Positions 3,499 to 59,655 of a stretch of DNA of 64,000 bases are shown piece after piece; positions within the stretch are counted from its first letter, which is position 1; the number at the start of each line of letters is the position of its first letter. This DNA is from Rhizaria sp. SCN 62-66 (Eukaryota). The position numbers and the translations under genes are program-made. The stretch covers positions 1 through 64,000 of the forward strand of contig MEDY01000025.1 of assembly GCA_001724265.1 (NCBI GenBank). Reading direction: 5' to 3'. The notes under the pieces were generated by a model. It made no database searches and had not been told where the DNA came from. It was given only the letters and a program-made list of their open reading frames with translations.

Positions 3499-3547
<49 letters not shown>

Positions 3548-11431: not shown

Positions 11432-14400
11432 ATGTCGCACCATCGTCCGATCAACTCACACAAGCAGCAGGAGCAGCAGGGCCAGCGCCACCAACAGCAG
11501 GGGCAGCAGCAGTACTCTTAGCAGCACCAGCTAGGGCGACAACAACAGCAGCTCTTGTTTTCCCACAGCAGCACTCGCTTACACGCCGATGCTCGCGCAA
11601 GCAACTCTGCGACTGCGCCTGCAACTACTGACGCCGATGCGGATGCCGCCGCGGCTGTGACGGCGGCTGCGATGCAAGCGTCGCTCTCTCGCATTGCCGC
11701 AGCCCTCGCTCACACAACAACATACGCGCCACCTGCCCCTGCCCCTGCCCCTACCCCCGCTGCCCCTCCTGCTGCCTCCGTGGCCGCCGCGCTAGCCGCC
11801 GCCGTCGCCGCCGCCGCCGCGCCCTTGTCTGCCACGTCATCCACCTCCGCAGCGTCCCAGTCTGCTGCGGCGCTGCTGACTGCGGTGCGCTCTGCCCAGG
11901 CCGCCGCGGCCGCCAACAGGCTGAGGGCCTGGCTCCGGGCCGCGACGGCCGCCGCGGTCGCCGAGGCCGAGGCCGCCGCCGCGGAGGCCAAGGCCAAGGC
12001 TGAGGCCGAGGCTGCCGCCAGTAACAATCATAACAGCGAGGGGGACGACGACGACGACGAATATGAAAGCGGCCTAACTTTGCTGCCGGGCTTCCGGCGG
12101 CTGAGCACCCCTTTCGGCCTCAGTGCTTCGGCGCTGGCGGCGGCGAAAGGCGGCGCCGGGAGCGGCTTAGCTTACCTGCTGCCCTCGCAACGGCGCCTGT
12201 TATCACTAGCGCAGGCGCAGGCGCTGGAGCGGGCCGATGCCGCCAAGGCCGCCCGGGAGGCGGCCGAGGCGGAGGCGGGGGCGGCGGCGGTCGCGGCGGC
12301 GGTTGCGGAGGCCAAGGCCGAGGCCGAGGCCGAGGCGGGGGTCGTTACTACTGATGGCCCTTCACATGTGAGTGCTGTCAAGCCTAAGACTGAGGCTGAG
12401 ACGAAGGCCAAAGCCAAGGCCAAGTTGTTGTCTCTGAGCAGCAGCAGCGACAGCGACACCAGCAGCACCAGCAGCAGCAGCAGCAGCGACAGCAGCGACA
12501 GCAGCGACAGCGACTCAAGCTCCAGCTCTAGCTCTAGCTCTAGCTCCAGTTCTAGCAGTAGCGACACTGACACTGACAGCAGCAGCAGCAGCAGTGACAG
12601 CGAGAGTGATGCTGAGGCGAGCAGTAGGTTTGAGCACAAGACCAAGCGTTTCTGTCCCTTGCCAAGCAAACCAGTGACGGCGGCACTCACTGCTGCCAAG
12701 GCCAAAGCGAAGACTGTGTTCAAGGCGAAAGATAAGCCGCGTGACATGGAAGTTAGGCCGCGTCTGTCCGAGCGCTTTTTGCCGACAACACGTGCGCACA
12801 TGGTACTGCTGCTGCAACAACAGCAACATCAGGACGAGCTCCAGCAGCAGCAGGGATTGCTCGGCCACTGCCACGTCTGCTTACAGTCCTTTGCGGCCTG
12901 CGCGCAGTCGCTCGCACTCGCCGCCGCCGCGGCCGCCGCAGCCGCTGCTGCTGCTGCTGCCGCCAATGGCCCGCAGCCGCAATTGCAGCCGCAGCCAGAG
13001 GTGCCGGAGCCGTGCGTGCAGGCGCTGCACTCGCGGTCGCGGTGGGCGCAGGCGCAAGCACGGCTGGTGCTAAGGCTGGGGCCGCTCAAGGCGAAGAAAC
13101 AGCAACTGCAACAGCAGTTGCAGCAGCGGAGTGACTGTGATGTGAGCAAGAGCGATAACAGTGTCCATGACAGTAACAATGACACTGATGCTGCTGCTGC
13201 TGGCTCTGCATCTGTTGTTTCTTTTGATGTAAGTTCCCCTGACCCTGACTCGGGCTTCGCTTACCGCCCCCGCGGCACTGTCGTCACGCTCAAGAAGGCA
13301 CTTCCATCAGGACGCGACGCCCTTACACCAACTGCAGCAACAAACACTGCTGCTACGACTGCTGTGCCCGCACCTGCTGCTCCAGCGATGACTGACCCTG
13401 ACTCCAGTACTTCGGCTGCTGCTGCTGCTGCCGCTGCGGCGGCGGCGGCGGCGGCGACTGATCCTAACGAGCTCTTCCTGCGGTCGCTGTCTGAGCGCCA
13501 CGGCCCCGTGTGTGTGGCCGCCGCCTGGGCCCAACTGGACGCGGCGGTGGGCGATCCCGCCAGGAGGGCCGCGCTCTCGGGGGCACTTACACGGCTAAGT
13601 ACCCGGGCCCCGGGCGCCGACGGGACGCCGCAGTGGTTTTACTCTCGGCAAATGCGGACTCCCATCGGCACGCAGTCCATCCGTCCTCAGTACTCGCAGT
13701 CACGGGCACGGTCACATTCGCAGCCTCAGCCTCAACAGCAAGAGCTTGAGTCTGTTGAGCCTGAGGCTGAGCAGGAGCAAGAGCAGGAGCAGGAGCAGGA
13801 GCGATACTGGGCCTACTCGGCCAACATCGACTACAGCAACACAACTGCCATCGCCAGCGCTACCGCCGCGGACGCGGGCGCAGCCGCTACCGCCGCGGAC
13901 GCGGGCGCAGCCGCTGCCGCCGCCCCTGCTTTGCAGCTGCAGTCAGCCCAGTGGCAGCTTCAGTCCCAGTCCCAGTCGCAGTCCCAGTCCCAGTCTCAGT
14001 CCCAGTCCCAGTCCCAGTCGTTTTTCACCGCTGTGCGCGGCTGCCGCAGCGACGAGCGGCGCCTCTGCGAGTGGGCTAAGGGGATACTTACACATGGGGT
14101 ACCGGCGCAAAATGCGCTCACACAACTCAGCACGACTGCGACCGACAGCTGCAGCAACAGTAATCGTGACGCCAGGGATGCTGCGACTGCCAGTGCGAAT
14201 GCTGCTGCGAATCCTGCTGCCAATGTCACTGCTAGGGCCAATGCTCGTGTGAGTTCCAATGCCAATGCGCGTTCGAGTGCTGCCAATGATCGCCGTTTCC
14301 CCACGTGCCCCTTCGTGCCCCCGCCCTTTCCCAGGCAGGGACTTGCGGCTGCGTCTAAGGGGCACTTAGACGGCGCTGACCGGGGGTACTTAGACGCGTC

Positions 14401-16358
14401 TAAGTGGGGCAGCGAGTGGGCCCGTGATATGTGGGCTCTGGCACCACAACCACCGCAGTTGACACCAGCAACAGCAACAGCAGCAGACACCGCGGCAACA
14501 GAAGCTCGTGTTTTTTCCACTCCCATGGGTGATGATGATGGCGACAGAGATGTGACCAATCGTAGCACTGCTCCTGTCGTCGACGCTGCAAACGCAGATT
14601 CTAGCGCAAGGACGAGCGCGAGTGGGGGTGACGCGCCGTCCTCTGAGCTCATCGAAGCCTTCTACGCCTCCGTCACCGCCCCCGCCCCCGTCGCATTCGT
14701 CCCGGCCACCGCGTATGTAAGTATCCCTGACCGTCTGAGTGCCCCGGCTCGCGACAGCGCCGGCGACAACGGGAGTGATGGCTGCAGCAGCAGTGGCGGA
14801 GACTGGGGCAGCGAGAGCGAGAGCGACGACGAGAGTGCCAGCGCCAGCGCCAGCGCCAGTGCCAGCGCCAGTGAAAGCGAGAGCGAGATTGCTATCTGTT
14901 TTGATACTAGTGGCATTAACGCAGAGTCCGATACCGATACCGAGACTGTGACTGTGCGCTCTCCCAGCTGCACGCGCTTTGCCTCAGCGGGCCCTCTGTT
15001 GCGCATCAAACAACTCAAGCAGAAACTCGAGCGATCAGCCCCCACAGCAACAGCTGCAACGGCTGCGACGACGGCGGCGACAGCACCGACTGCAACTGCG
15101 ACTCAAGAGCTAGAGCTGGAGCCAGTGCTGCTGCAGCCGCAAACGGCCTCAGACTCCGACTCCGAAGCCGACTCTGAGTCTCCATCGCGGTCGCAGCCTC
15201 ACTCCCAGTCTCAGCCCGCCCGCGTGTTGCTGGGCCAGGGCCCGTGGCCGGCGACCTACGGCAGCGTCCCGGGCGCCGCCCGCGCCGCGCCCGTGGCCGT
15301 GCTGAGGGCCACCCACCACGCCTGGGGCGCCGCGCGCGGCCGCAGGGTCAGGACCCGGGCCGCGGCGTCGGCGCTGCTGCTGCGACTGCAGCAACAGCTG
15401 GGACAGCACCAACAGCAGCAGCCGCAGTCGCATTTTCAGCAGCGGCAACAGCAGCAGCAGCAGCGGTTATTGCAGTCGCGTGTGCAGGCATTGCGGTCGC
15501 GGTTGCTGTCGCAGTCGCTCGAGGCCCAAGTGCTGACTATCACCAGCCAAAACAACGCGAGCATGGGCTACGGCGCAACCGCAGGCAATTACGCCTCTGA
15601 TGCTTTCAATACTGGTCATGTTACCGGTAGTATGATGAGCCCCAATAGCACTCACATGAGCGATAACGGCGCGCTTCCCAGCTCTGTGTCGACCAACAAC
15701 AGCAACTCCAACGCAACTCCCACGCACGTAACTGCCAATCTCAACAACAGCAGCAGTAGTGGCTCAACTGCTTTGAGCAGTAGCAGCGCTAGTCAAATTA
15801 ACAGCAGCAGCAGCGGCAGTGGCGGCGGCGGCCACCAGGGCGGCCGCCGCAGCCGCGCGCTGCCGACGCTGACGTCCATCAGCGCCCTCTCCCATCTCAC
15901 AGTTACGACTACCGCCACCGGCGCCGCGCTGCCCGCGGGGGCGGCCGCCGGCGCTGGCGCGGGCGCAGGGGCCGCAGGTGGCGGCGGCGGCGGCGGGGGG
16001 GCGACTGGGGGGGTGCTGACGTTTCCTGAGCTGCTGCTGCTGCAGCATCCTAAGCTGGCGCCGCCGCCGCCGCCGGCCGCGTTGTCTCCGCAGCAACAAC
16101 AGCAGCAGCTCCAGCAGTGGCTGCAACTGTGGCAGCAGCAGGCGAGCCCTACCAGCAGCGTCTCCGGCCACAGCCTTAGCAGCCTCAATGGCCTCAGCCT
16201 CGGCAGCGGCGGCAGCAGCAGCGGCGGCAGCAGCGGCGGCGGCGACTGCTTTGACGAAGACGATAACAACGATAACGATACTGAGAGTGACGGCGAGAAC
16301 GCCGGCGCCCGCACGCCCACCAACGCCGGCACGAGCACCAACATCAACGCTAATGCCC

Positions 16359-16402
<44 letters not shown>

Positions 16403-17501: not shown

Positions 17502-18232
17502 CCGCAACCAACACGTGCAAGACATACGACGTCTCAGTGCATTTGCAGTACGTGCATGGGACACGTTAACAAGCGTCTAAGGAGAGACGAAACATATAAC
17601 GAAGATACCTAGATTAAGATTAATATAACCTAATGAATATAATGTGATACAGTGCAACATGTCTTTAGAATGAGGTCGGTAGAGACTTGTTTGTTTCAGG
17701 ATAACATTACTGTCTGTGAATACAAAGCGCTACTTTGAGTACGTACATACGGACGTAATATGAATATGTGTCTTTGTATCAATCATAGTTATAAAACAGT
17801 GTTTTGTTGTTATTGTAATTTTTTTCTAATATGTTGTTATTTTGCATTTTGTGTGTTGTAATATTACTATTTTGTTCTGGTGTTTACATCGTATAATCTA
17901 AGTCATACCAAGTTGCGTTACGACGAACAAAGAGACCTGCTGGACAGTGATGACGGCAAAGGCAATGTTAAAAAGATAAGATGCAATGAGATTGCAGCTA
18001 TTGCTGTCGCTGTTGCTTGAGATCAGCAGCTTCCTGTTGCTGCGGCATGAGTATCATGCCATGAAACTGCCTCAGAAACTAATCTCTGTCATCCATGGTA
18101 GATGGAAGTTAACTAACCCTCCATCCTACGATCAGCCGGTCCCCCTTCCTTCTCTGTTCGCGTCAGAGAGAGAACGCACGCCGAACGCAACGCGCGTCCC
18201 CCCCTTAGATTGTAAGTACTTGGATCCCGCAC

Positions 18233-19051
18233 TTAGATCTCGACCTTGGTCTCCTCGATGCCGTCCTTGGTAACAACCTTGATGGTCCAGGTGTCGAGGT
18301 TGAGCAGGAAGCGCGTGCGCAGCTCGCGGAAGGCCTTGCGCAGCAGCTCCTTGCCCTCCTCGAGCGTCATGTCCTTGTGCCAGAAACGGTCGAAGAGCGA
18401 GAGAGTGAAGTTGGACGCGTGGCCCTGGGAGGAGTACTTGACGGGCTGCATCGAGGCCAGGTAGTCCATGTAGTACAGCGCGGGGCCATCGACCTCGTCC
18501 ACGCCCGCCAGCAGAATGTTCACCTGGATTGGGTGCGCAGCGGAACAAAGCGCAAGACATGAACGACAAGGTTAGAGACAGAAAAGAGAGAGAGTCGTTG
18601 TAAGATTTGTCGGATCATAAAACACGCATGTTGATCGGGAAGATGACTTCAGAGCAAAACAATCTTTGGATATAGCAAAACAAAAGCAAAACGACATTTA
18701 GCTAAATCATAATTGTTTTATCAACGTCTTGTTGTGGGCATGAACAGTGTGGCGTACCTGCTTGGGGTTGGAGCGGAGCGCCTCTGCGAGCTGCTCGCGC
18801 GTGAAGTTGGCGATGGCCTTGGTCGAGAGCGTGTGGCCCGCGCGCAGCTCGTTGAGCGCCACGTTAGAGCGAATGTACTCGCCGAAGTTCATGCGGTCGC
18901 CCTGCGGGCCCGTCATGGCCATAAGCGTGGTGTTGTTGACCGCGATCGACTTGTCTTCGTCCTTGGTGTAGATCATGATGCTGCGGCCCGCGACGGCGTC
19001 GGTCGCCACCAGCACGTAGTCCTTGCCCACAATGCCGAACGAGGTGTCCAT
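18233..19051 (-). CDS. PSMB2: 20S proteasome subunit beta-4 (PSMB2/Pre1). Exons 19051-18758 and 18523-18233
   Basis: MDTSFGIVGKDYVLVATD..RSIM...DEDK..GDRMNFGEYIRSNVAL..ANFTREQLAEALRS.PKQ|VNILLAGVD..GPALYYMDYLAS..LSLFDRFW. GTACGC...CAG intron, stop TAA. Confidence 0.95.
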
Positions 19052-20527: not shown

Positions 20528-20994
20528 CTGCGCCAGAGATTAACAGACGGCAGCAACAAAGCAAGAATTACATGGCAAAGGAGGCAATGTGAGAGAATAC
20601 GAAAATAGAATAAAGATAAATATGTTATAATATTGTGTGGGGTAGTGCTAGAATTTGATTTGACGTTCGGATCATGCCGCACGAGAGGAAACTTTTAGCC
20701 AAGTTGCGGCCGTTTGCCGTTCGCCACTGGGCTCTCGCTTGACGTCCTCAAGCTGGTCACTTTCACATCAGAATCTGCTCATATATCGCCTTTTCCTTGA
20801 TATATTTTGGTTTTTCGCACTTAAATTGCTTTTTAGTGCATTTATCTATTAACAAATCTCTATTATACTCTTTTTGTCTTGCACTAGAGCAGTTTTTGCG
20901 TCAGCTCCACGAAGACCCTTCTCCAAGCTTTGCCTCCCACCAACACCGCTAGCACGCCACTACCCCCTTCCTTCGCTCTGCCCGCGCGCGCCCG

Positions 20995-23091
20995 ATGGCC
21001 AAGAGCCGGTTCGAGTATGTCAAGGAGTTCGAGCAGGACGACAAGCTGCTGCCCGAGTGCTGGATCGTCGTCCGCGTCGACGGCAAGCAGTTCAGGCCGT
21101 ACGTTCCCCGCGCAAGACACGGGATTTCACCGCATATATCACCTCCAATCAAACAAATGTTTGGCTTCGCGGGTTCATCGATGTGTTTTTTGTTATGACG
21201 TATTAATTTTTTACACATGCTCATATTCTTTCTCAGAACCATGCTTCTACTTGACAACACACATCTCACTCCTTTCTCTCTGCGCTCTCTGTCCCCCTCT
21301 GTTGCCTCCTCGCTGGCCGCAGCTTCACCGACGCGCACGGTTACCTGAAGCCCGTGGACGACCGCGGCACGAAGCTGATGAACCGGTGCGCTGCCGAAGT
21401 GATGCGGCAGTGTCCCGACGTCATCCTCGCGCTCGGGGCCAGCGACTAGTTCTCGTTTGTGCTCAAACGGTCCTCCGTGCTCTTCTCGCGCCGCGCGGGC
21501 AAGATCGCGACGTTTCTGGCCTCAGCGTTTACAGCCGCATTTGTCTACCTCTGGCCGCAGTACTTCGGGCCCCGCTCGGCGCGGCTGTGCGCTGAATACC
21601 ACTCTGCCGGGTCGATCACTGGCAAACTGGGCAAGCTGGCTGCGCCGGGGAGAGACAAAGCGGCAGAGCGAGTCAAAGCTGTGGCGAGTGATGACATCAG
21701 TGGCGAGGGCGATTTCGCGGGCTGTACTGAAGCATCTGCAGCTGATGCGACTCCGACGGCAGCGGAGGCTAAGGCTGAGGCTGTGGCAGCTGCTGCAGCG
21801 GCAGAGGAGGAGGAAGAGGCAGCTGTGTCCGCCGCCGCGGCCCGGGCCGCCAGGAGGGCCCAGCCAAGCGACAACGGCTCTGTGTCCACGACGAGGCCCT
21901 GCCGCGCGCTGCCCGCCGCCGCCGCGAAGCGCCTTGTTTCCGCCGCCGCCGCTGTGGCAGCCGCGAACAACGTCAAGTCAACCGACGACTTGAACAACAA
22001 CAGTGCTGCTGCTGCTGCTGCTGCTGTTCCGAGTGCGGCCCGCCCGCTCTCCCTGCCCGCGCTGACGGACTTGCGGGGCACGCGCCTGCGCTTTCCCGCG
22101 CCGAGCTTCGACGGGCGCGCCGTCTGCTACCCCACCGACCGCGCGCTAAGGGACTACCTGTCCTGGCGGCAGGCCGACTGTACGTCCCGATGGCGCTACT
22201 TAGAATGAATACCACACTCCTTCTTATAACTGCTCTTTATTCAATCCCGATGTAATACTTCTATTTTTTTCTGGAAAAATATATATATTTATGTCCTTTT
22301 GTTGCAATGATGCGATGCCATATTCTATCTTCATAACTCTCTCCTCACCTTGTCGCTTTCTTTCCATTGGCTTGTACGTACGCTTTGACTCCGCTCTTGC
22401 ACATGTGAACTTCTCGTCTTGCCACCACTCAGACCACATCAACACAATGTACAACACGGCCTTCTGGGCGCTGGTCCAGCTCAAGGGCCTCTCCCCGCGC
22501 GCCGCTGAGCAAACGTTGACCCCGACCAACAGCGAGGGGAAGCACGAGGTGCTGTTCTCACTGGGGATCAACTACGCGAAGCTGCCGGCCGTCTACCGCA
22601 AGGGCTCGCTGCTCATCTGGTCGGACGACAACAAAACCAGCACTGGCAGCGTTAAGGCGAGTCACGGCAATGGCAGCGGCAGCGCGACGCAGTTGAACGC
22701 CCTGAACGCGACTGCCGGCGGTGGCGAGTCGAACGCTGCTGCTGCTGCTGCGGCTACTGATGGTGGTGGTGGTGGTGGTGGCAGCGGTAAGCTGAGTGCA
22801 GCTGCTGCTGACGCGGACGCCGACTGCGAGGGCGAAGGCTGGGGCTGGAGCGACGCTGAGTGCGATCTCGACGCGTACGGGCAGGAGATCAGCTCCAGTG
22901 TAAGTACCCCCTTAGACGCCGGCAAGCAGCAGGGCCAGCAGCACCAGCAGCAGCAGCACTTAGACGATGTAAGTGCGACTGTAAAGCGCCCTCGCCACGC
23001 CAACAATCACAATAACAACGGCGACAGCAACGACGGCGACGACGACGACGACGCAAGCCTCACCAGCTCAAGCCACGCGAACCTGAACCTG

Positions 23092-23128
<37 letters not shown>

Positions 23129-23424
23129 GCAGCAGCAGCAGCATGAATGCGGCTGCGAGTGCCGGTGCGCCGCGCAAAGTGAAGCGCGGCCGCCGGCAGA
23201 TCGTGGTGCTGCACTGCGACTTGATCGGCGACGCCTTTTGGCAGCAGCGGCCGTGGTTGCTGCCGTATGTGTCGCCCAAAGACAGGGCCAAGGCCGAGTA
23301 CAAGGACCGGAAAAAGAAGGAAAAGGGCGCTACTAACGCTGCTGCCGCTACCGCGCAACAGCAGCAGCAACAGCAGCAAGGGCAGGACAGTGATCGTGAG
23401 ACTAGCGTTGCACACTGCCTCTAA
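20995..23424 (+). CDS. THG1: tRNA(His) guanylyltransferase Thg1 (~650 aa). Exons 20995-21098, 21323-22179 and 22433-23424, with an in-frame TAG at codon 77
   Basis: [28 protein letters not shown]...[75 protein letters not shown]. Both introns are GTACGT...CAG. Stop TAA. Confidence 0.93.
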
Positions 23425-23806
23425 ATGGAACTGTTTGTTATCTAGACTGAACTTTATAGCTACGCATCGTATTTAAATCTTTATACAGAATGAGAGCTGT
23501 ATTTGATCGTATATTAAACATTGTTTTATCTTTGAAAATAGGAGCAAAATTAGATGTTAGACTCGTATTGCGTCTTGCGAGCAGTCTCCCCAAGGGTGGC
23601 TGCGCAGCGCGAACGACGAGGGGAAAGAACTTGAAAACCGGAAAAATGAATATTAAAAACCACGTGCACTTTACCAAAAAGCGCACTCACATATAAAATC
23701 ATGAACAAAAGACCACAAACACACCGAAACAGAATCAGAAATCGCAACAACAACAACAACAACGACACACATTCAGCGATCATCTAGTTTCTCTACCGCT
23801 TTCAGC

Positions 23807-30190: not shown

Positions 30191-30633
30191 TGCGGGAGAG
30201 TGACGGGCTAGGGGGCGCGCGAACGAGGCCGGGATAGGTGCGACGAGCAGAGGGCGGGGGTTTCCTCGGGCGAGCGGGACTGAAAGAGCTAGATAAAAAG
30301 CAGAACAAGGAATTTGTGAAATAAAAATATAGAAACAAGATATTAAGAACTAAAATATTTGTTTACTCGGGTGAAAGCTCGGCATGACGAGTGAAATACG
30401 GTGTAAACTGCGTTGAGAAATGTAGGGCTACGTCGTTCGCTATGGCTCGATCGCTGGCGCTGGTTTTCCGTTTGTGGTGTCCATGTCGAGACTCACGAGG
30501 CGCAGTTGGTATCAATCTTCATCAATTGATCGCTAAATGATTTAAAACAACATTTTCTCGACTGCCAATGCGCTTTTCTAACTTGTCCCTTAATTATATC
30601 TTTTCACCTGTTCTTTTTGCCCCGCTATCACAG

Positions 30634-42203: not shown

Positions 42204-42238
<35 letters not shown>

Positions 42239-47095: not shown

Positions 47096-47167
47096 GCGCT
47101 ATTGGTCTAGTGGTTATGATTGATCGTTGCCAACGATTAGAGCCGTGTTCGATTCACGGATAGCGCA
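47096..47167 (+). tRNA. tRNA-Gly(GCC)
   Basis: Acceptor stem GCGCTAT/ATAGCGC plus discriminator A, D-arm TGGTCTAGTGG, anticodon arm GATCG-TTGCCAA-CGATT, T-arm CCGTG-TTCGATT-CACGG. Confidence 0.95.
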
Positions 47168-47169
47168 CC

Positions 47170-47177
47170 TTTTTTTT
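47170..47177 (+). terminator. RNA polymerase III oligo-T terminator
   Basis: T8 run two bases after the tRNA discriminator. Confidence 0.8.
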
Positions 47178-47416: not shown

Positions 47417-50400
47417 TTACGCTTCGACCAGCGGGGTATTGAGAGCCTCCAGCACCGTCCACAGCAGCTCGTTGCGCAGCGCCGGACTCAGCCGCGGCCT
47501 CCACCCGGTGGCCCCCGCCCCCGTACTATGGCTGCTGTCACCCGCATTCCTCACACCGCCACGCCCAGCGCCATGACTGTTGCTGTGGTTACTAAGCGTC
47601 GCCTCCTCGACCGCGTCCGCAACGGCGCTCTGGACGAGGATCTGCACGTACTTGCACACCACTGCCGTCCTGGCGGCGACCCGCACCGCCACCCCGGCCC
47701 CCGTCACCGCGGCGCGGCTGGCGGGGTAGATCGCCCAGTCCGGCGCCAAAACGGACCCGTCGCGCGCGCCGCCGTCCGCGAACGGGCACGGCGGCAGCAG
47801 CGCCAGCGCGGGCAGGTGCGCCAGGGACGTCTCGCGGACGGTCGCTGCGCCGCCGCCGGCGCGGTGCTTGGAGCCGTAGAGGCCGAGGAAGCCGCCGCAG
47901 CCGCCGTTGCGGACGAAACCGCCGGTCCCGGTACTAGCCCCGCTGCGTTGCTGCGAGCTTTTGCTGTTGGGGTTAGTGGCTGTGAAAGGGTTATAGTGTA
48001 AGGGGATGGGGCAGTAAGGGGTTGCGAGCGCCAGCGGCAGCGACGAGGCCCTTAGAAGCGAGTCTAAGGGTGCCGTGAAGCGCAGCGACCCCGGCAGCGG
48101 CACACACACAGGCGCAGTCTTAGCAACACTCCTGCCGCTGCTGTTGCTGTTGCTGTTGTAGTAGCTGCTGTTGCTGTTGCTGTTGTTAGCGGCGGCGGCG
48201 GTCAGGGACGGAGGCGCCACGTGCATGGTGTTATGCGCGAGAGCTGTGGTGACCAGCGAGACCAGCAGGGGCACGCAGTCGGTGAGGGCGTTGAAGGACG
48301 CGGGGGAGTTGGCCCACGGCGGCAGCGGCTGCGACCAGGGCGAGGACATGTCAGCAGTTGCACTTGCACTCCCAGTCGCAGGCTCTGGCTCAGGTTCTAG
48401 CTGAGTGTCAGCGTCAACGATGTCGTTATGATCGTTATCGGTGTCCGCATCGTCATCATCATCGTCTTCATCGTCGTCGTCGTTGTTGCCTAGCAGGCTC
48501 GGCTCATCATCGTCCTCAGCGTTGTCAGCGTTGTCACCAGTATCAGCAACAGCATCGTTGTCGTTAGTATTTGTTGAGTCAGCATTCGCAGCGTTTGCAT
48601 TCACACTCTTCGCGTTTGCGCTATCCTTAACAGCGTTGTTGTTGTTGTTGCTCTTCTTGTAGCTGTTCCTGTTGTCGCGAGAGGCGCTCGCCGCCGCCCC
48701 CACCTGGGGCCGCGCTGGGATGAGTCCCACTTCAGTGAGCACTTCAAGTACTTGAAGCTTGGCCTTGTGCAAGTCGGCCATCGCCTTCTCGTCCAACCCG
48801 TACTGGGCGCAGAACGCGCGACTGCGGTTAGTGCACACCGCCCCCCAGTCAGCGCCCGCGCCCCCAGTGTGGGGGCGAGACTGGGAGTGAGCCTGGGAGT
48901 GGGACGTGTAAGTGTGGGCCTGCGTGGCGATGGCGCTGGCGGCGCGCCACCCCTTGTACGCGAGCCAAATCGACACCTGGTCACTGTAGTGCGCCTTCGA
49001 AGTCGCCGGCACGTACTCGGTCACGCCAGGGTTCGACAGGGACAGCGAGTGCGACTGTGTTGTGGCTGCGGCGGCGGCTGCCGATGCGGCTGTAGTGCTG
49101 AGGGGGACGGCAACACGGCCGACGGTGACCGCAAACGGCACCGGCGCCGGGGCCATGCCCACGCGCACCCTTACACCGTCCAGCCACGAGCCATTTACAC
49201 TAGAGGTACTTCCACTCACATCGACAGCAGCGGAGGTACTTACAGCGACAGCCGAGGAAGAGGGGGTACTTACACTGCGCTCGATCGCGACGGGCGCGTA
49301 CGTGCCGAACTTAGCCCTGGCCTTGGCGGCGCCCTCGCGGTCCTGGGCCGCCTCCAACGCCTGCCGCGCCCCGCCGCCGCGCTGCTGCTGCCTGCCGCCG
49401 GCGCCGGCGCCCGCGGCGGCGGGGGCGGGGGGGCCCTTGAAGGGGCTGTCGCCGACTTCGAGGCTCGCGGCCAGCACGGCCGCCGCGTCCACGCAGCGGA
49501 AGACGACGCCCAGCACGCATAGTAAGGAGGCTGGGGGCGAGAGCGGCAGCGCGGCGGCGACGCGGCCTAGCGACGTGAGCGTGAGCGTCAGCTGCGGCCG
49601 CGGCAGCGGCTTCGTGGTGCGGTATATTGTGGCCGCAGCTGCTGAGTCAGCAGCGGCGTCTAAGTACCCCTTAGACTGTGATAATGACGAGGAGGAGACG
49701 GAGACGGAGCCAGAGAGGTACTTAGACGAGGCAGCGAGGAGAGTCTTTGTTTCGGACGGCGTAAGCACCCGGATGCTATTTGTCGCACTCACAAAGCAAC
49801 GAACCTGTTGCTGTTGTTGCTGCAGCTGTTGACTGTTCTTCTCATCATTGCTGCTGTCCCGACTGACGAGCGCACTTGGAGCGTTGTGCGTGAGAGCATT
49901 CACATTGCGAATAGTAGTCGGATTCGTAGTATTGTTGTTGATACTGTTATTATTGGCCGCGAGCGTGAGTCGCACGATGCCGTGCCGGCCCAGGGACGCC
50001 ACCGCCGCGACGACCGCCGACAGCGGCGGCGGGTCGAGGCACTGGCTCAGCAGCTCGAACACACCGCTGCTCACCGCCTGCATGGGGGTACTCATGGGAG
50101 TACCCGTGGGGGAGCGTGTGTTAGCACTGCCCGCGGCGAGAATATGCATCACCAGCGGCAACACAGGCACTCGCAGGAGCTCCGGCACCGTGAAGTGCTC
50201 CATGCGCCGCGAAAACGTCGGTTCCGAAAAAAGGCGGTAGCACACGCCGGGCCCGGTGCGGCCCGCGCGGCCGGCGCGCTGCTGCGCAGAGGCGCGGGAA
50301 ATGGGCTTGCAGGAGAGCACTTGGGTGCCCGAGCCGGCGACGCCGCTGCCGCTGCCGTTGCCGCCGCCGCCGCCGCTCTTGCCGGAGGCTGCGCTGAGCG

Positions 50401-53400
50401 ACGAGTGCGACGACTGGTGCTCTTTGCCGCAGTCAATGACGCAGGAGACGAAGGGCAGTGTTACGCCCGTCTCGGCGATGTTCGTCGACAGGATGATGCG
50501 CAGCTCGTGCGGCGGCGGGCGCCGGAAGGCCTGCTGCTGCGCGGCCCAGGGCACGGCCGAGTGCAGCACCGAGACGGAAGTCAGGCCGCCCACGGCGCCG
50601 CGGGAGCCCACGCTGGCGCCGTTGCCCACGAAGCCAGCGTTATTGTCGCCAGGCCGAGCGCTGGAGCTACTGCCATTCGCGCTAGAGCCACTCTCCCTGT
50701 TGTAGTAGTGCGCCGGGGACGGGGCCAGGAGCCGGTTGGCCTCGATGCGTTTCGCCAGCGCCTTGATGTGCGCCAGCCCAGGGAGGAAGATCAGCACGGC
50801 GCCCTCCACCAGCGGCGGCGCCGAGTCCCGCGCCGCCAGGACGTCGCTCGCGCGAAGGCAGACACCCGCCGAGGTCGGGACGCCGCCGAACGCGTCGCAG
50901 TAGCGCAGCAGCCCCTGCGCCTGCGCAGCCGCGGGGGGCGGGAGGGCCGCCGCGGCCACTGCGCAAAGCCGGTCGACGCCCGTGCCACTGCCGCCGCCGC
51001 CGCCGCTGCTGCTGTTGTTGTTGTTGTTGTTGTTGCCTGAGAGGAGCCAGCTGGTGTAGCGGCAGCCCCGGGCGGCGCGCGTGAATGCTGCGGCGTGCGG
51101 CGGCAGCGGCACGGTGCCCTCGGCCATGGCGGCGATACGGCGCATCACGAGCGCGGTCAGGAGAGCCTCGACCACATCCAAGTTCAGGAAGGAGTCGTTC
51201 AAAGTTAAGCCGCGGAGGGGAGCGGGCACGGCCGACCAACCCACGTGCGGCTTAACTAAACCAGCCGCATTAGAGCCAGAGCCAGAGCCGTTGCTGTTGT
51301 TGTTGTTCGCGATGGTGGAGAGAGAGAGGGCGTGGTGCTTCGCGATCGCGAGCTGACGCTCACGCTGCTCTTGCGCCCTTTGCTTCGCGTCCTCGTCTTC
51401 ATCGTCGTCGTCAATGGCTACAACAGCAACATTGGCTTTGGCCTTGGCGTCGGCATCGGCATCGTCGTCATCCTCATCGGCTAGCAGCTTGTCAGCGGCG
51501 TTAGCGCCCGCGCCCGCGCCGGCGCCGTTTGTGGTGGTATCCGGGAACAGCGTCTCAAGTGAAGGCAGCAGCGGCTGCTCGAGTGCCCCCCAGACGTACG
51601 TTTCGCCGGTCACCTTGGTCCATCGCCGCAGCCAGGCCGCCTTGGCCTCGCGCCACTGGGGGCCGAAGCAGGAGGATAGGTACCCGCCCACGGTCACTTC
51701 GCCGGGTAAGTACTCCGAGTCTAAGTGCCCACGCTCTGAGTGCCCCCTGTCCGCGTCTAAGGGCCCGAGGCCGCCGCTGTCGCTGGTGGCGGCGAGGAGG
51801 GCGGGTAAGTACCCGCAGTGCGCGAGAGCCTGGTCTAAGTACTTGATCTCGACGGGGTACGTGCGGCCGGGCACGGAGAGGCAGGGCACTAAGGGGTTCT
51901 TGCTATCGACAGTGACAACAACAGCGGCAGAATCGTTATCATCGCTGTCAATATCAATATCATCGCCGTTGTCAGCAGCAGCCGGAGCTGTAGAAGGAAC
52001 AGAGCTAGAGGATGAATCAGCAGCTTGTGAAGTGTTCTTGTTCTCGGGGACGACATCGACACTCGTCACAGCGTTAGCAGTGCTGTTGCTGTTGTTGCTA
52101 GCGGCAGCGGCAGCATCCTCGTTGTCAGAGGCATCCCAAGCATCCAAATCGGGGGACTCTGTCTCCGCCTCCGTCGCCGCCTCTGCTGCAACTGCTGCAA
52201 CTTCTACTGCGGCCACGTCAGCTGCGTTCGCTGCTTCTGAGTTCGCAGCAGCTGCAACAGCAGTGTCTTTGTTATTGTTATTAGAGCCGTTATCATTGCC
52301 GTCGTCCTCTTTATCAGAGGCGTCCCAAGCGTCCAGCTCGGCCGCCGCGGCCGCCGCGGCCGCCGCCGCCTCGGCCTCAGCCTGGGCTTTGGCCGCGGCA
52401 CCGCTGACGGCGACAATAGCGCTGTTGATAGCAACAGCAGCAGCAGCACTCGCAGTGCTTGAGTCGCTCGCAACAGGGACAACAGCTTGAGCGCGATTGC
52501 TATCAAAGATGCCATTGCCAACACTCGCCTTGTTTTTGCTCTTGCTGTTGTTGCTAATGTTGCCGAAGGCCGTGTTGTTGACGGTGGCGAAGCACGAGAG
52601 AGCGGCTAAGCTGGCGTCGTGAAAATACTCGCTCATTTGCGCCGACGACAGCGTCGCAGACATTACGATCAACCGCAAAGGCCCGCATACGGCACTGGAA
52701 CTAGCATTACTGTTAGCATGACTGTTGTTGTTGTTGTTGTTGTCAAGAGCGGCGGCAGCGGCCAGACGTGCGCGCGTGACGAGCGTCCGCCTAAGTAGCA
52801 CCAGCAGAAAGTCAATCTCCACCGACCTCTCATGCACCTCATCGAGAATCACTACTGAGACGTCGCTGAGAAGCGGATCCGCCCGGAGACGCCGCAGCAG
52901 AATGCCGTTCGTGCAGTAGAGCAGCGGGGAGCGGGGGTGGGCTTTGTGGTCGAAGCGGACCGAGTAGCCCACCAGGGAAGACGGCCGGGGCCACTGCTGC
53001 AGGGTCGGGGTACTTAGACCCGGGTAAATAGTGCTGCCGCCGCCCTTAGCGTCGTCAGACGAGGACCCAGCAACAATGTTGTTGCTGTTGCTGTTGTTGC
53101 TGTTGGCAGCAGCCCAGTCAAGCACCTGGCTGGCCACGTGCGTCGCCGTCGACGTCGCCGTGATGCGCCGCGGCTGTGCGCAGATCACCTTGCCCCACGA
53201 CCAGGGGTACTTCGCGCCCCCACGCCGCGGGGGGGCACTTACACCCGTGGTACTTACACCAGTGGCACTCAAACCCGTCTTACTTAGACTGAGCCGGTCC
53301 GCGAGCATTGCCTCCAGCACGAACAGCGGCACACGCGTCGTCTTGCCGCTGCCCGTCTCGGCCGCAACCACGGCCACGGGCCGAGACGCGAGCGTGGCCG

Positions 53401-56400
53401 CCAGCGTGGCCCGGAACGAGTCGATGGGCAGGGTGGGATGCAAGGGCGGCAGCAGGTGGGCGGCTAAGGGGGTACTTACATTGCCGCTAGCTGCGATGGC
53501 GTTGCGCTTCTGGAGGACAGCAGCGGCGTCAGCGACGGACATGATGCCACCGCTAAACCGGCTGTGACCGCCGCCGCCGCCGCCACTACTGCTGCTGCTG
53601 CTATGCTGCTGCTGCTGCTGCTGCAAGAGGAGGGTCGAGAGCAAAGGCCGTTTGCCACTGAGCGCCAAGGCAGTCGGCAGCACCGACACAGGCTTATACT
53701 GCAACTGTAACTGCTGCTGAGACTGCGGTTGCTGTTGCTGAGTAAGAGCAGCAGCGGGGGTACTTAGACCGATATCTAAGGGCGTCGCGGCCGCGGTCGC
53801 AAGGTCGTGCGCGAGCCGCCACAGCCATGCGCGCTCCCGCAGGCGGAGCCCCACGGTCACCCGCGCGCGCTCGGCCGCCTCGGCCGTCTCGACGGCGCGC
53901 AGGCAGGACCGAAAAAAGGGCGGCAGGAAGAGCGCAGGGCTGGTGCGGCCAGAGGTCGACGGCGGCTGCAGCAGCGCTGCGGGTACCGTTACCACCAGAG
54001 GCACAGCGGCGGAGGCAGCAGCAGCAGGAAGGATGGGTTTGTGGGAGCATGCCAGGGAGGTCAAAGCGGAGGCTACCTCTGTCGCAGCTGCAACAACATC
54101 AGTCGAGCTAGAGTTAGAGCTAGAGTCAGTGTTTTTGTTGCCAGAGAAGGCTGATGCAACTGTAAGGGCCTTCGCGACACACACAGGCACATTTACACTT
54201 CCACTTCCACTGCCACAGCGAGTACTTAGACTCTGATTCACACCCTTGTCGTCACTGGTGACACTTAGAGTCCCGCTCGAGGTACTTAGACCGCTCTCCC
54301 ACTTAGACACACGGCGCCAATACTTCCCCCACTGCAGCTCACAGTGCCGCTGCCGCGCCGCCGCCGCCGCCGCCTCGGCCTCGGCGGCCTGCCTTCGCGC
54401 AGCGCGGCTTAACTTCCAGAGCGCGGGGTCGGCGGCGTTAAGGCCGTGGAGCAGGAGGGTGAAGAGCAGCTCGGTGGCGAGCGGCAGGGGCGCGGCGGCG
54501 GTCGGCAGACGGGAGTAGAGACAGCTGGCGGGGGCAAAGGATGAGGCGGGCAGGGGAAAGCGGAGCAAAGCGCCGCCGCCGTCGCCGCCGCCACCGTTTG
54601 AGTCGTTGTTACCAACAGATCTAACACCATTCGCCGCCGATGAACTAGTGGTGTTGTTGTTGTTGCTCGAGCTAGAGCCGAGAGGGCTGATGACGCGAGC
54701 GCCGCGAACAACAACAGCAGCTGCTGCGTTGCTCGGGGCAGTACTCGCGCCTGCAGCAGCAGCAGCAGTGGCGTCCGTGCCGTCAGCGTCGACCGCATGC
54801 GCACGCGCAGAGGGCGGCTTGGGCGCGGGGGCCGTGGTCGCGGTGGCCATGGCGGCGACGGCGCTGAGGCTGGTCACTGCCGCGGCCGACGAGAGCGCCT
54901 CGGTGTACGTGACGAGGTCGGCGGTCGTCAAGACGAACACGGGCACGGGCGCGTAGGCACCGGCGCTCGCAGTGGAACGTCCGCTGTTATTGGCATTCCG
55001 AGTACCCGTGACGTTGTTGCCATTGCGACCGCCACCGTGACTGTTGTTGTTGTTATGGCCGGTACTCATGGCGGGCGCAGCGGTGTTGACGGGCGGAACC
55101 CCTGACCACGTGCGCGGCGGCAGCGGCGGCGGCAACTGAGACTGCAGCGACTGAGACTGCGAGCTCTGGCCCTGACTCTGCGACTGCTGCTGCTTCGCTT
55201 GCTTCGGGGGGCCGTCTAAGGGGGTACTTAGCGGCGCCGGCGCGACCGCGTAGCCGTAGCCGGCCCCCAGCAGCGCCAGCAGAGGCGGCGCCACCTGCGG
55301 CAGCGCGCTGTGAGTCGGCAGCAGAGACAGCTGCAGGACTTGCGACCGCGACGCCTCCGAAACGAGGGACTTCACGCGGGTCTGGCTCGAGCTCATGTTC
55401 ACGAAGCCGCCGCCGCTGCTGCTGTCGCCCGCGTCGCTGTTGTTGTTGCCGTTGCGGGAGTTCGAGTTAGCGTTTGTGGTGGAGAGGAGCTCGTGCAGCG
55501 AGCGCCCGTTGCCGAAGCTCCTGCCGCTGCCGTCGTCAAATTCGCCACAACTCCCGTCGTTGGTACCGCCACCAACGGCGCCGCCCTTGTTTGCCCTGCC
55601 CTTGCGCTTAGACTTCGCTTCCGTAGTCATGCCCGCGCCTGTGCCTGCGTTATGAGCATTGGCATTGGCGCTGGCATTGGCACTAAGGTTATTAGGCTTG
55701 GGGGGCTGGGGGTAAGGGTGGCCGATGTGGGCGGCGTACTTCTCCAGCTGTAAGGGAGTGACTAAGGGCCGGAGGTTGACTAAGGGGGTCAGGCAGCCCT
55801 GCCCTTCGTCGTCTAAGTAGTCGTCACTGTTGTCACTCTGCTGCTGCTTACGGTCATTTGCATTCACGACAGCTGTGTTCGAGCTAGTCTTACTAGCTTT
55901 GTCAGCGTTTGCGCTAAGATTGACGGTGGCAAGGTTCGTGATCACAGATACTGGGGTCAGTTGCGAGCCGATGACGGCTGCCCGGGGCAGCTTCCTGCGT
56001 TCGCGAAAACAACAATGAAACAAGAGAAAAAAAGCACAATATGTGAGATGTGGAAAACAAAAGTGAATAAAGTGAGTGATTTTCGATGTTTTTAGTATTC
56101 AAATAGTATTATTTCATGTGGGACGCGTCGTCATGATATATAAAGTCGCAATTAAGTGTTTCAGACACACGTACCTGGTCGAGAGGATGATACGGCAGCG
56201 TACGACGCTGGCGCCCGAGGCCGAGGGTACGTTGACGTGTTGCAAGGTCACATGAAGCCGCTTCCACTGGCCGTTGCCGCAGAGCACGCCCTGCACCACG
56301 TCGAACACACACGTTCCGGTACTCGTGGGTGCGTTGCCACTGCTGTTATGCGCGCTGAGGCTCTTAAACTGGAGCCGGGCGCCAAGACCGCTGACGCTCG

Positions 56401-59400
56401 AGGCACTTACACTCGAGGCCGCGCTGAGACCGGAGGTACTTACAGTAGCCGAGGAGCCTGCGGACAGCACGAACGGGCTCGCCACCGCGGGGAAGTTGAA
56501 GTTAGGCCGCGTCGCCGCGTGAAGAATAGCCGCGCTGAGCTGGGGGTGGTACTGGGCCCTCAGCCACAACGGCGACCGCGGGTCGACAACGCACTTAGAC
56601 GGGCTAAGTACCCCCTTAGACGCTCCAGCAGCGCAGGTAAGCGCGGCCAATGAAGGACACAGCGCTCCGTTGGCGCTGAAGCAAGCACTCGCGGCGTTGT
56701 TTGCGCGATTGCTGTTACTATTTGCGGTGTATGCCAGCGCTGTCACGGCCGGCAACGCGTTATTAGAGCTGTTATTCGCGCTACTCGCCGTTGTGGCTGT
56801 TGTTGTAGTAGTAGAGAGCAGCACTTCGTCCCAGTTGCCGCAAAACCTGCCGGCGGCGACACCACAGCCCACCCCCAGAGTAGCCATCGTCAGACTGCCG
56901 CCGCCACTGCCGCTGCCGCTGCTGCTGTTGCTGTTGCTGTTGCTGCCGCTAACGCTGACAGTGTTGATGCTCGTGTCGGCGGTGTTGTTGGTGACTGTGA
57001 TTGTGGTGGTGGTGGTGGCGGAGGAGGCGGGCACGAAAGCAGGCGCGCAGGCTACGGTGGCGGCTTGCCACAGCAGCGTCCTCAAACCATCAACACTATT
57101 ACCACTCTCATTATCATTATCATGATCATTGTCAACCGCAGTAGCGTTTACGCCAGCGTTAAAGTTGTTGTTGCTGCTGATCTCCAAAGCGCCCGCGGCG
57201 TTGGCGGCGGCGGCGGCGGCGACGGCGACTGCAACGGCGGCCGGTGACGGCGCCGAGGCTGGGGCGTCCGGGTTGTAGTTATAGCCGCCAGCGCCAGTGC
57301 CAGCGCCAGAGCCGCTTGTGGCAGAGCTCGAGGGGGCATTCGCGCTGCTGCTGCCGCCGCCGCTGCTGCTGCTGCTGCTGCTGCTGGTGAAGTGCAGTGA
57401 GATGTTTGGACTGGGCCCGTCCCAGACACGGCCGCTGCAGACGGGCGCCGTGAGGGTGACCTCGCGCACGGACACGCCGCCCCCCGCCTCCTCACTATGG
57501 GCGCCCACGGTCACCTGCGCCTCGAAGCAGCTGAACGGCGGCGGCGCGCGCTTCGGCGCGGTGGCGGCGGCCACGGCGGCGGCAGCGGCGGCGGCGGCTG
57601 AGGCGCCCTTTTTGTTGGCCATGGACGCCAGGACTAGCTGTGCCTTGGTCAACCCCTTTGTGGCGCTCCGGCCCTTAGTTAACAGCAAAGACCCTCCTGA
57701 CGTCGGAGTGTTAGGATTCGCAGCGGCGGCGGCGGCGGCGGCGGCGCGGGCAGCGGCGGCGGCGTCGGCAGCGGCATTCATATCGTCGATGAACGAGCCA
57801 ACGCTGACACTCTTCGAGGAGGTCTTAGCAGCAACAGTCTTAGCTTTAGCGTTGGAGTTGTTGTCGTCGTCGTCACTTTCACTAGAGCTCGAGCTTGAGC
57901 TGCTGTCATTGCCGTTCGGAGCAGCCTCAGCCTCAGCTTCAGCAGTAGCAGCAGCAGCAGCAGCAGCAGTTTCAGTCTCAGTCTCTAGCTTCGGCTCAGT
58001 CTCAACAGCGTCCGTCACAGCATCCGTGTTGGGATCCACATCCGCAGCCTCAGCCTCACATTCAGCCTCAGATGCGGTTTCGTCGTCCTCATCGTCCTCA
58101 TCGCCGTCATCGCGGTTGTCGATATCATTACCAGCCCCAGCCTCAGCCTCAGCATTGGCATCGACGTCATTGGTCTCGGCCTCAACCCCAGCCTCATCCT
58201 CAGCCTCAGCCTCAGCAGGGGTCTTCTTAGCACTGGCGCCGGCGCCAGCTGAGCGCTTAGACTTGTTGTTGCTGCTGCTATGATTGGCAGAGACGGCTTT
58301 TTTCGGAACCGGCCACACCTTGTCGGTCAGCGTCTGCGGTAACCGGTGGGGAGCAACCGTGAGACAGAGGTACTCAATGGCGGCTTGACTTAAAATGCGC
58401 ACGAGCTCGCCCTCAGGGGGGGTAGTTGTCACCTCAACAGCAGCCGCTGTCGCAGTTGCAGTAACATTTGCACTTGACTTGTCGCTGCCGCCGCCGCCGT
58501 CGTTGTCCTTGTCCGTGTCGTCATTGGCAGTACTCGTAGCGCTCGCAGCCGAGCCGTCCCAGCTGTCCCCCGCCCCCTTACTATGGGCGTCGTCGTCGTC
58601 GAACAGCGGCACTGCGATGGCGGTCAGGCCGGGCACGGCCACGGCGAGTTGGCGGCTCTCGATCGCTGGAACCGGCAGCGGCACGGGCGCGAACAACACA
58701 CTGGCACTGGCAGTGGCACTGGCAGTGGAAGTGTGAGTGTTGTTGTTGTTAGGGTCGCCAACGTCAACAGTGATCACAGCCACACTATTAGGGTTGCTAC
58801 TAGGAGTGATATTAGGGTTATTGAGGTTGCTATTATTCGCGAGAGGTAAGGTTGTTGTGACACCAGGCAGTGACCGGTTAGGCCTTAACCACACTGCTTC
58901 AGTCTCTGCAGCACTCTCAGCAGCATTCGCAGTCTCACTACTCTCTGTGGCTTGACTTTCCACCAGCGCGGCCTGACTTCCGACCGCGGCGGCCTGACTT
59001 CGGCGGCACTGCTCCACGGCCGCGGCCGCGACCGCCGCGACGGCCGTCTGCGCCAGCGCGGCAGGCACCGCGCAGGCCTGGGTCAGATAGGCCACAGCCG
59101 AGGCCAGCGTGGACGTGGCCAGGGAGAGAGAGCGCGGGGGTAGGTGGAGGAACGCGGCGGGCGGGGGCAGCGACGACAGGGACTGGGAGAGGGCTGGGGT
59201 GAGTACCGCTACTGCTGAGTTAACAGAGGGGGCGGAACTAAGGGGGTACTTAGATGACGACGACGACGACTCGCTCGCAGTATTCGAACCCTTACTGTTG
59301 TTCTTGTTTAGGGTGTGGTTGATGGTGGCGGCGGCTGACTTGGTTGCGGCCGAGGACGAGGCGAAGGGGTTCGAAAGTAAGGCCGCGTGTAAGTGGTACT

Positions 59401-59621: not shown

Positions 59622-59655
<34 letters not shown>

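Follow-up and report, generated by a model that had tools for sequence, protein, structure and literature searches.

A short DNA word recurs throughout the long protein-coding exons of Rhizaria sp. SCN 62-66, and we suggest, with confidence that stops a little short of even, that it represents a miniature copy-and-decay repeat family tolerated in insertion-rich exons, the copying agent of which was not seen. The word was characterized in a stretch of 64,000 nucleotides (nt) of this eukaryote (contig MEDY01000025.1 of assembly GCA_001724265.1, positions 1 to 64,000; hereafter, the window), and its best form is T[C/G]TAAGT[A/G]CC(CC), a unit of 10 to 22 letters. DNA that contains the word has been transferred by copying among unrelated genes and multiplied by local duplication, and copies of the word add peptides in frame to the proteins that carry them. 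An earlier, sequence-only reading of the window had proposed a 20-bp palindrome that either binds a dimeric DNA-binding factor or is a miniature element that coding sequence tolerates in frame; the observation proved stronger than that reading had stated, and the second of its two alternatives is the better one, but it is incomplete.

Form and excess of the word

A position table of 102 cores showed conservation from 3 bases 5′ of TAAGT to approximately 5 bases 3′ of it, with the consensus G-T-S-T-A-A-G-T-R-C-C-(C)-(C) and nothing further. About one third of the copies carry the extension ...CCCTTAGAC(GC), and the longest shared form (about 22–24 nt) is GTSTAAGTRCCCCCTTAGACGC. The perfect 20-mer is present where it had first been noticed:

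36803..36822, + strand: perfect 20-mer GTCTAAGTACCCCCTTAGAC in the SETD6/SETD3-like gene, read as L-S-T-P-L-D; 24 nt are identical to positions 580–603 of locus L008

Near-complete copies (≤3 mismatches, both strands) number 14, close to the 15 or so claimed previously, against 0 in 100 dinucleotide shuffles. Exact GTSTAAGTRCC was observed 33 times (0.14 expected), and the 7-nt arm CTTASAC/GTSTAAG 90 times (11.2 expected).

Counts that preserve the encoded proteins were made in nine long open reading frames (ORFs; 39,783 nt) chosen for length, mostly with domain matches, the other ORFs of the window lying outside these counts. Synonymous codons were permuted within each ORF in 300 shuffles, which leaves protein sequence and codon usage unchanged; a null of this kind had been proposed by the sequence-only reading. 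The 11-mer (≤1 mismatch) was found 26 times in sense and 10 times in antisense orientation against 1.49 and 0.47 under this null (0.20 and 0.10 when codon order was shuffled), and the 20-mer (≤3 mismatches) 13 times against 0.11. In an unbiased 7-mer scan against the synonymous null, words of the motif topped the list (TGTAAGT, 24 versus 0.95; TCTAAGT, 27 versus 2.25; GTCTAAG, 31 versus 2.58; CTTAGAC, 23 versus 1.45). Copy density in the window is approximately 2.3 per kb of long-ORF sequence. The excess of the word is genuine and lies far outside what chance would produce.

The word is also a near-private marker of the organism: the exact pattern GTSTAAGTRCCCCCTTAGAC matched 9 of approximately 241 million metagenome records, a single sample contributing 8 of the 9, and was absent from 2.9 million viral contigs. 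One of the eight same-sample contigs (L002) is 100% identical to window positions 22212–24797 over 2586 nt, and its sample therefore contains the same organism. In the seven other same-organism contigs (28.3 kb), 36 core copies were counted where 3.7 would be expected, including 8 through which the contigs were retrieved; 24 of the 36 are in sense orientation, 8 are antisense and 4 lie where no ORF of 150 amino acids (aa) or more is present. The ninth match (L005) is a bacterial-looking sequence from a different data set, without other similarity to the window, in which the exact 20-mer is followed by a third CTTAGAC arm (128–165); it is probably a chance hairpin.

Constraint at the nucleotide level

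The word is imposed at the DNA level. It uses codons that are rare here, as the sequence-only reading had remarked: CTA and TTA account for 73 and 91 of 1179 leucine codons and GTA for 67 of 798 valine codons (each 6–8% of its own amino acid), and the next codon is AGT after 21 of the 73 CTA and 25 of the 67 GTA codons, and GAC or CAC after 31 of the 91 TTA codons. Tripeptides that the word can encode are frequently written in one fixed spelling:

LST: fixed spelling CTAAGTACC in 13 of 30
VST: fixed spelling GTAAGTACC in 11 of 15
PLD: fixed spelling CCCTTAGAC in 11 of 14
YLD: fixed spelling TACTTAGAC in 6 of 7
SKY: fixed spelling TCTAAGTAC in 6 of 8

In the commonest frame, the variable C/G and A/G letters are first codon positions (L/V and T/A), and the rare A and T at third positions do not vary. 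Core copies with ≤1 mismatch comprise 63 in sense orientation (50 in the L/V-S-T frame and 13 in the S-K-Y frame) and 28 in antisense orientation (16, 9 and 3 over three frames), with four frame/strand combinations in use, consistent with the earlier statement that the word occurs in unrelated genes, in both orientations and in several frames. The twelve encodable tripeptides total 149 occurrences, of which 61 are spelled exactly by the word; the other 88 are near the level expected from residue shuffles (74.6), indicating that copies add residues and do not recode residues already present.

A repeated protein motif would conserve amino acids, leave synonymous codons free and keep to one frame and strand. 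The dominance of the L/V-S-T frame (50 of 91 copies) points in this direction, but the synonymous-shuffle null falls short by approximately 20-fold, LST, VST, PLD and YLD favour single rare-codon spellings in the proportions listed above, and the copies fall into four frame/strand classes. The nucleotide-level constraint thus exceeds what amino-acid composition, codon usage or a single protein motif can provide, which were the explanations that the sequence-only reading had named as fatal to its proposal. An assembly or library artefact fares no better: a second assembly (L002) contains these copies too, and three DNA runs from two studies contain 96–100% of the words of 30541–37842 (7.3 kb), with 96% recovered in runs of other years and of another study. 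As far as sequence alone allows, the protein-motif or artefact explanation is refuted, and we consider it scarcely credible.

An asymmetric unit

The conserved unit is an asymmetric word and not a palindrome; the symmetry that gave the motif its first description is incidental and is not maintained. Fully complementary 7-bp arms were found in 1 of the 14 near-complete copies. Arm cells are paired in 76.5% of cases versus 79.5% with partners shuffled, two-sided changes affect 1 of 98 arm cells, and the covariation score lies under the shuffled mean. Four left arms carry a G, none with a compensating C in the right arm, and the second arm is missing from about two thirds of the core copies. The compensatory stem changes expected of a structured hairpin were thus not found. 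The predicted RNA fold of the perfect copy is a 7–8-bp hairpin (−12.9 kcal/mol, z = −4.5), and that of the common G-form copy is no better than shuffles (z = −1.5).

These data bear on the proposal that a dimeric DNA-binding factor recognizes the word as a palindrome, or that the word forms a structural DNA or RNA hairpin. The stable fold of the perfect copy and the presence of copies on both strands would fit such a role, but arms that are not kept complementary argue against hairpin and symmetric dimer site alike, and most copies are single half-sites; we regard this explanation as highly improbable. Spacing periodicity, a check suggested by the sequence-only reading, was absent up to 600 nt. 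No telomere-like tandem array was present among the 9 metagenome matches, telomere, small nuclear RNA and transfer RNA (tRNA) anticodon-loop origins having been weighed only by eye.

Copying between genes, local duplication and apparent decay

Copies of the word are shared between genes and multiplied within them, as seen in the following features.

14383..14407, − strand: 25-nt stretch with two arms back to back (…CTTAGAC GC GTCTAAGTACCCC), identical to 32844–32868 in another gene
4309..4345, + strand: 37-nt two-unit composite in the WD40 gene, read P-L-S-A-A-G-S-L-S-T-S-R, PLSAAGSLSTSR
32913..32949, + strand: same 37-nt composite in the SET-like gene, in another frame, read L-S-K-Y-P-G-D-A-K-Y-L-A, LSKYPGDAKYLA
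53230..53293, − strand: tandem array of four 15-nt units (GTSTAAGTRCCNCNG), read LSKTG-LSATG-VSTTG-VSAPP
38693..38746, − strand: 27-nt tandem duplication with a copy in each unit, read LSTPLDNGE-LSTPSDGGD
13582..13603, no strand assigned: back-to-back inverted core pair with a distance of 11–13 nt between the cores, like the pairs at 34164–34186 and 56590–56612

The 33-nt core of the 37-nt composite has 27 invariant positions, and its two copies lie in different frames of unrelated genes. The four-unit array at 53230–53293 accounts for approximately 24 aa that DHX29 lacks between helicase motifs I and Ia, and similar three-unit arrays with a 15-nt period are present in L003 and at about 51719–51770. 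Tandem arrays comprise 2–4 units with periods of 15–57 nt, most copies are single, and the copies do not form head-to-tail arrays of 1–7-nt units, which define simple tandem repeats. Five opposite-strand core pairs are 12–13 nt apart. Gaps of ≤60 nt make up 40% of those between copies versus 17% (standard deviation, 4%) under random placement, and 40 of 49 same-strand gaps are divisible by 3. Self-BLAST of the window together with the seven contigs (92 kb) kept 79 pairs, with the motif in 15 of the top 60 listed; besides simple hexamer repeats, the sole complex sequences common to loci were motif copies of 24–30 nt.

The excess of the 12-mer T[CG]TAAGT[AG]CCCC extends smoothly over mismatch classes:

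0 mismatches: sense, 13 versus 0.03 expected; antisense, 5 versus 0
1 mismatch: sense, 25 versus 0.24 expected; antisense, 10 versus 0.16
2 mismatches: sense, 28 versus 3.5 expected; antisense, 11 versus 3.2
3 mismatches: sense, 54 versus 36.8 expected; antisense, 43 versus 29.6

Third codon positions take 21 of the 32 mismatches of the 10-nt core in the commonest frame (p = 0.003; for example, CTA to CTC or CTG). Degenerate copies appear to decay as ordinary coding sequence would.

Location of copies

The nine long ORFs (39.8 kb) contain 91 of the 97 core copies of the window, whereas local-composition shuffles gave an expectation of 4.7. The features that best illustrate the distribution are given below.

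30541..37839, + strand: most copy-rich ORF, 2433 aa, SETD6/SETD3-like, with 19 sense and 21 antisense TAAGT cores
47420..56098, − strand: DHX29-like DEAH helicase ORF, 2893 aa, with 15 sense and 8 antisense TAAGT cores
22898..22917, + strand: near-complete G-form copy (1 mismatch) in a lineage-specific insertion of approximately 170 aa in Thg1 (tRNA-His guanylyltransferase)
22955–22975: second inverted pair in the Thg1 region, 3′ of the copy at 22898–22917
51803..51844, + strand: two antisense core copies in the helicase, with K-Y-L-D and G-Y-L aligned to F-H-L-E and G-F-V of DHX29
6917..6936, + strand: near-complete copy (2 mismatches), of which the TAA on the minus strand is the stop codon (6931–6933) of the mitochondrial-type S16 gene
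18211..18237, no strand assigned: two core-like copies at and just after the proteasome beta-subunit stop codon

Among the nine ORFs, copy density peaks in the 7.3-kb SET-like ORF, in which the copies lie within a large lineage-specific insertion, and is zero in a 1.6-kb ankyrin ORF. The six copies elsewhere include the one at the S16 stop codon, two at the proteasome stop codon, one in another ORF and one in a Thg1 intron that may be due to chance. Up to 60 nt from copies, GC content varies over codon positions as is usual in coding sequence (GC content at third codon positions (GC3) of 0.723 versus 0.740 elsewhere). Hitch-hiking with triplet repeats was considered and rejected, as copies are farther from triplet tracts than random positions are (median, 314 versus 199 nt). 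Separately, 4 of 17 inspected stop codons (6931–6933, 18233–18235, 27688–27690 and 37840–37842) have the context (T/A)C-TAA-G, which is the start of the word in its closed frame.

Several earlier statements on location hold in part. Copies do occupy the range 14353–59254, in which the sequence-only reading had placed the motif, but are also found outside it (4309–4337, 4882–4913, 6917–6936, 13582–13603 and 14074–14093). The described concentration in long exons and domain insertions agrees with the share of copies in the nine ORFs and with the Thg1 and helicase insertions, but two helicase copies fall on conserved residues. The claimed absence from ribosomal protein and U2A′ genes applies to the U2A′ and L29e coding sequences, which have no copy, but the S16 stop codon lies inside a near-complete one, and the proteasome stop codon falls within a core-like copy.

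Resemblance to intron 5′ ends

The G form of the word contains GTAAGTA and coincides with the sequence used universally at 5′ splice sites; the C form would be the same word with a splice-dead first base. The main rival to copy and decay starts from this likeness: the word may be a selected transcript or gene-body signal in long exons that mimics an intron 5′ end and would recruit the U1 small nuclear ribonucleoprotein, or another 5′-end-binding factor, with no splicing taking place, perhaps as a means of protecting or marking intron-free exons of 4–9 kb. Orientation-blind copying would make the copies, and selection would then retain the sense ones. The sequences argue for such a signal in that GTAAGT occurs 27 times in sense orientation in the nine ORFs; copies are confined to ORFs and stop or 3′-end regions; sense copies predominate (63:28 in the window and 24:8 in the other contigs); density is highest in the 7.3-kb SET-like ORF and zero in the 1.6-kb ankyrin ORF; the short, intron-containing U2A′ and L29e genes have no copies; and the variable base is C or G only. 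Candidate real introns begin with GTA[AC]G, and 4 of 17 have a CCC run downstream versus 1.7% of controls. However, approximately 31% of copies are antisense, the real introns prefer GTACG (12 of 17) over GTAAG, the CC(CC) and CTTAGAC parts of the word are left unexplained, and mismatches gather at synonymous positions, as if the word were weakly constrained or not at all. Rfam gave zero matches in the window and the seven other loci, and no U1 gene was found in them. We consider such a selected signal unlikely, although it is the strongest competitor.

A fuller version combines both processes: an exon-restricted, sense-biased mimic of intron 5′ ends, the G form of which would be splice-competent and the C form splice-dead, would spread without regard to orientation, possibly via complementary DNA (cDNA) of mature messenger RNA (mRNA), and its sense copies would be kept for recruiting the 5′-splice-site machinery to very long intron-free exons. 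Copying through cDNA from mature mRNA would explain why the word is lacking in introns and spacers. Such a mimic, which seems to us decidedly unlikely, would be a nuclear, coding-embedded and self-propagating RNA-processing signal of a kind not described so far.

The same resemblance could instead be a relic. Copies may be dead, internally deleted remnants of mobile introns (introner-like), with ends like GTAAGTACCCC… and …CCCTTAG, too short to splice and kept as coding sequence when in frame. The full word indeed reads as a 5′ splice site, a pyrimidine run and TAG, its likeness to the 5′ ends of real introns includes the C run, and copying between genes did take place. Yet the real introns of the window are AT-rich, none is among the repeats common to loci, their 3′ ends are not CCCTTAG, antisense copies are common and no full-length member was seen, which together make this origin improbable.

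Lastly, the copies might be removed from mRNA as micro-introns or as the ends of in-frame GC-rich introns (exitrons). GT…AG boundaries are present in both orientations of the 20-mer, and the C form yields an in-frame GT…AG of 18 nt. But the dominant frames read GTA-AGT … TTA-G|AC, and excising GTAAGT…TTAG removes 3n+1 bases (16 nt in the full word) while the same frame is kept for thousands of codons, which argues against micro-introns. The 18-nt form begins with GTCTAA, unlike any real donor seen in the window, and the flanks of copies show normal codon periodicity. Judged from these reading frames, removal by splicing appears very improbable.

Candidate intron starts were inspected at 17 sites (9613–60036), with GTACG at 12 and GTAAG at 5. 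The CCC run is positioned 6–13 nt from the donor in the four candidates that have it, and the 1.7% refers to control windows within the candidate introns; one of these four candidates is probably no genuine intron.

Copy and decay as the preferred origin

Under the preferred reading, in which the word is a miniature copy-and-decay repeat family, new copies would arise through DNA copying and not through protein-level selection or point mutation. Single units of approximately 20 nt would be inserted, with two candidate agents, a transposase that mobilizes a miniature non-autonomous element and filler DNA templated during repair, and copies would land in, or only survive in, long insertion-tolerant exons. 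Translation of a copy would follow whichever frame is open, giving L/V-S-T-P-L-D, S-K-Y-P, x-Y-L-D or V-L-R. The third frame contains TAA and TAG, and copies in this closed frame would therefore be purged or turned into the stop codon of the gene. Local multiplication would proceed via small tandem (15–57 nt) and inverted duplications, and surviving copies would then drift, mostly at synonymous sites. The in-frame miniature element of the sequence-only reading thus gains from the copying between genes and from the Thg1 and helicase insertions, but no target-site duplication and, within the 92 kb, no longer parent element was found for it, and enrichment is almost absent outside long ORFs.

Several observations weigh against copy and decay. 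Self-BLAST of the 92 kb revealed no longer parent element or repeat family and no transposase; no direct repeat that would mark a target-site duplication was visible in the 24-nt flanks of 22 near-complete copies; and the flanks of the 102 cores show no conservation beyond a frequent GC(G) on one side. The helicase copies at 51803–51844 occupy conserved positions and not insertions. The third-position excess of mismatches could reflect natural near-matches in place of decayed copies, and insertion is inferred from the sequence of this organism, no event having been observed directly. Three further points are the most serious. First, the other 24.2 kb of the window hold 6 core copies against 3.8 expected, and a freely or neutrally inserting element would be expected in introns and spacers too. 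Second, sense copies exceed antisense copies 63:28 (p = 3e-4), a bias repeated in the other contigs (24:8). Third, position 2 of the core is C in 33 and G in 30 sense copies and almost never A or T, a pattern that simple decay of one master copy does not predict. Because of this near-absence from introns and spacers, the 2–3:1 sense bias and the strict C-or-G position, we hold our confidence in copy and decay just under the halfway mark; the same three observations are predictions of a selected transcript-level signal. The restriction to exons, which copy and decay leaves unexplained, is the most interesting part of the finding.

Genes and introns of the window

The window, which derives from bioreactor or wastewater metagenomes, contains eukaryotic nuclear genes. 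Spliceosomal introns, a proteasome subunit and U2A′ are markers of the host type. The proteasome beta-subunit gene is interrupted by an AT-rich intron, Thg1 and DnaJC11 genes consist of several exons each, and further genes encode a U2A′-type leucine-rich-repeat protein, ribosomal L29e, mitochondrial-type S16, WD40, ankyrin and DUF1295 proteins and the DEAH helicase, for which DHX29 is the nearest among solved structures. The match of the 2433-aa ORF to SETD6/SETD3-like proteins is weak. Exons are GC-rich (GC3, 0.73), and introns and spacers are AT-rich.

The best named protein matches are fungal and of modest identity; searches with the DUF1295 and Thg1 proteins returned fungal and unnamed metagenome matches with 27–62% identity over conserved parts, and a protein atlas yielded no match of use. 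In protein clusters, 3 of 10 guessed gene products were matched exactly, the clusters had 1–2 members, and the sole pair differs at 1 of 484 residues, without information on insertions or deletions. One polyA RNA run contains 12% of the words of the SET-like gene, a share that carries no weight on splicing or expression.

Housekeeping proteins of the window contain very large, lineage-specific, low-complexity insertions (22600–23200, 21580–22060 and 47420–56098). Thg1 has two such insertions, one of them the approximately 170-aa insertion described above, and insertions are found at comparable positions in a distant Thg1 from a metagenome (P0028); the DHX29-like helicase has approximately 320 aa between its RecA halves versus approximately 75 in DHX29. 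Triplet runs (CAG/CTG, AAC and GCC) are abundant within ORFs and encode poly-Q, poly-N, poly-A and poly-S (for example, at 3499–3547, 23092–23128, 40374–40604 and 42094–42237), and the homopolymer-rich proteins recall those of Eimeria. On the minus strand, 56100–56174 is AT-rich after a GTACGT donor at 56174, which suggests that the ORFs at 56117–59923 and 47420–56098 belong as separate exons to a single gene exceeding 12 kb. Near the L29e gene, 28 consecutive G residues occur (8596–8623), and a lone tRNA-Gly(GCC) gene stands between two protein genes (47096–47169).

Comparison with known repeats

Rickettsia palindromic elements (RPEs) are bacterial repeats of approximately 100–150 bp, true palindromes in several families, that lie in frame and add peptide to unrelated proteins in which they are tolerated in non-essential parts. 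The word resembles them as a nucleotide-level repeat that is in frame in unrelated protein genes and adds peptide, but it differs in length (10–24 nt, in place of a palindrome of approximately 100 bp or more), in its nuclear eukaryotic host, in symmetry that is not maintained and in being almost absent outside ORFs. Miniature inverted-repeat transposable elements (MITEs) are short, have no coding capacity, carry inverted ends and are dispersed at high copy number on both strands. The word shares its shortness, lack of coding capacity, inverted ends, many copies and occurrence on both strands with MITEs, but the paired terminal inverted repeats and target-site duplication that define them were not found here, the 7-nt arms not being conserved as a pair, and no parent transposon was seen in the 92 kb. 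The compartment bias is also reversed, with exons in place of the introns and spacers usual for MITEs, and to our knowledge the unit is several-fold shorter than any known MITE. Introners are approximately 100 bp or more and are spliced, and U1 telescripting sites are intronic or exonic matches to the 5′ splice site without extra shared sequence. Resemblance to intron 5′ ends, distribution along gene bodies and sense bias link the word to both; however, introners are longer and spliced, and telescripting sites do not have the extra sequence of the word.

Coding repeats of Eimeria are CAG triplets that give homopolymeric amino-acid runs, and its telomere-like repeats are mostly non-coding; the coding repeats likewise act at the DNA level, favour coding sequence, are read in several frames, fall in loops and insertions and are scarce in conserved housekeeping genes, but they are simple tandem triplets, in contrast to a complex, dispersed and mostly single-unit word (PMC4199364). 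PARCELs are coding repeats with DNA-level dyad symmetry in unrelated microbial ORFs, including those of eukaryotes, and are thought to be shuffled within genomes. They are described as tandem 25-residue protein domains that are defined by protein hidden Markov models and selected for amphipathic structure, whereas the word has a unit of 4–7 codons without protein-level conservation (PMC2996958). Mitochondrial genes of Nematomorpha also contain inverted repeats inside translated coding sequence; as reported there, these are perfect, up to 284 bp long, different in sequence from site to site and stringently preserved in structure, whereas here one short word recurs in nuclear genes without preserved structure (PMC6649704).

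None of the compared systems matches the word in compartment, unit size and absence of protein or structure conservation together. A search of the full-text literature by motif and by concept, with supplements and subscription-only papers outside its scope, found no description of a comparable nuclear element.

Implications

The exon restriction raises two questions: whether a copying route sees only mature transcripts, and whether a splice-donor look-alike is useful in giant exons. If copy and decay is the correct explanation, this nuclear genome tolerates, and keeps generating, thousands of 10–24-nt copies of a word in translated exons, so that one DNA word is translated as L-S-T-P-L-D in some proteins and as S-K-Y-P or x-Y-L-D elsewhere. 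The word would then be a source of protein insertions apart from triplet-repeat expansion and classical transposons, and would extend to nuclear genes the idea of the in-frame selfish repeat known from Rickettsia and organelles.

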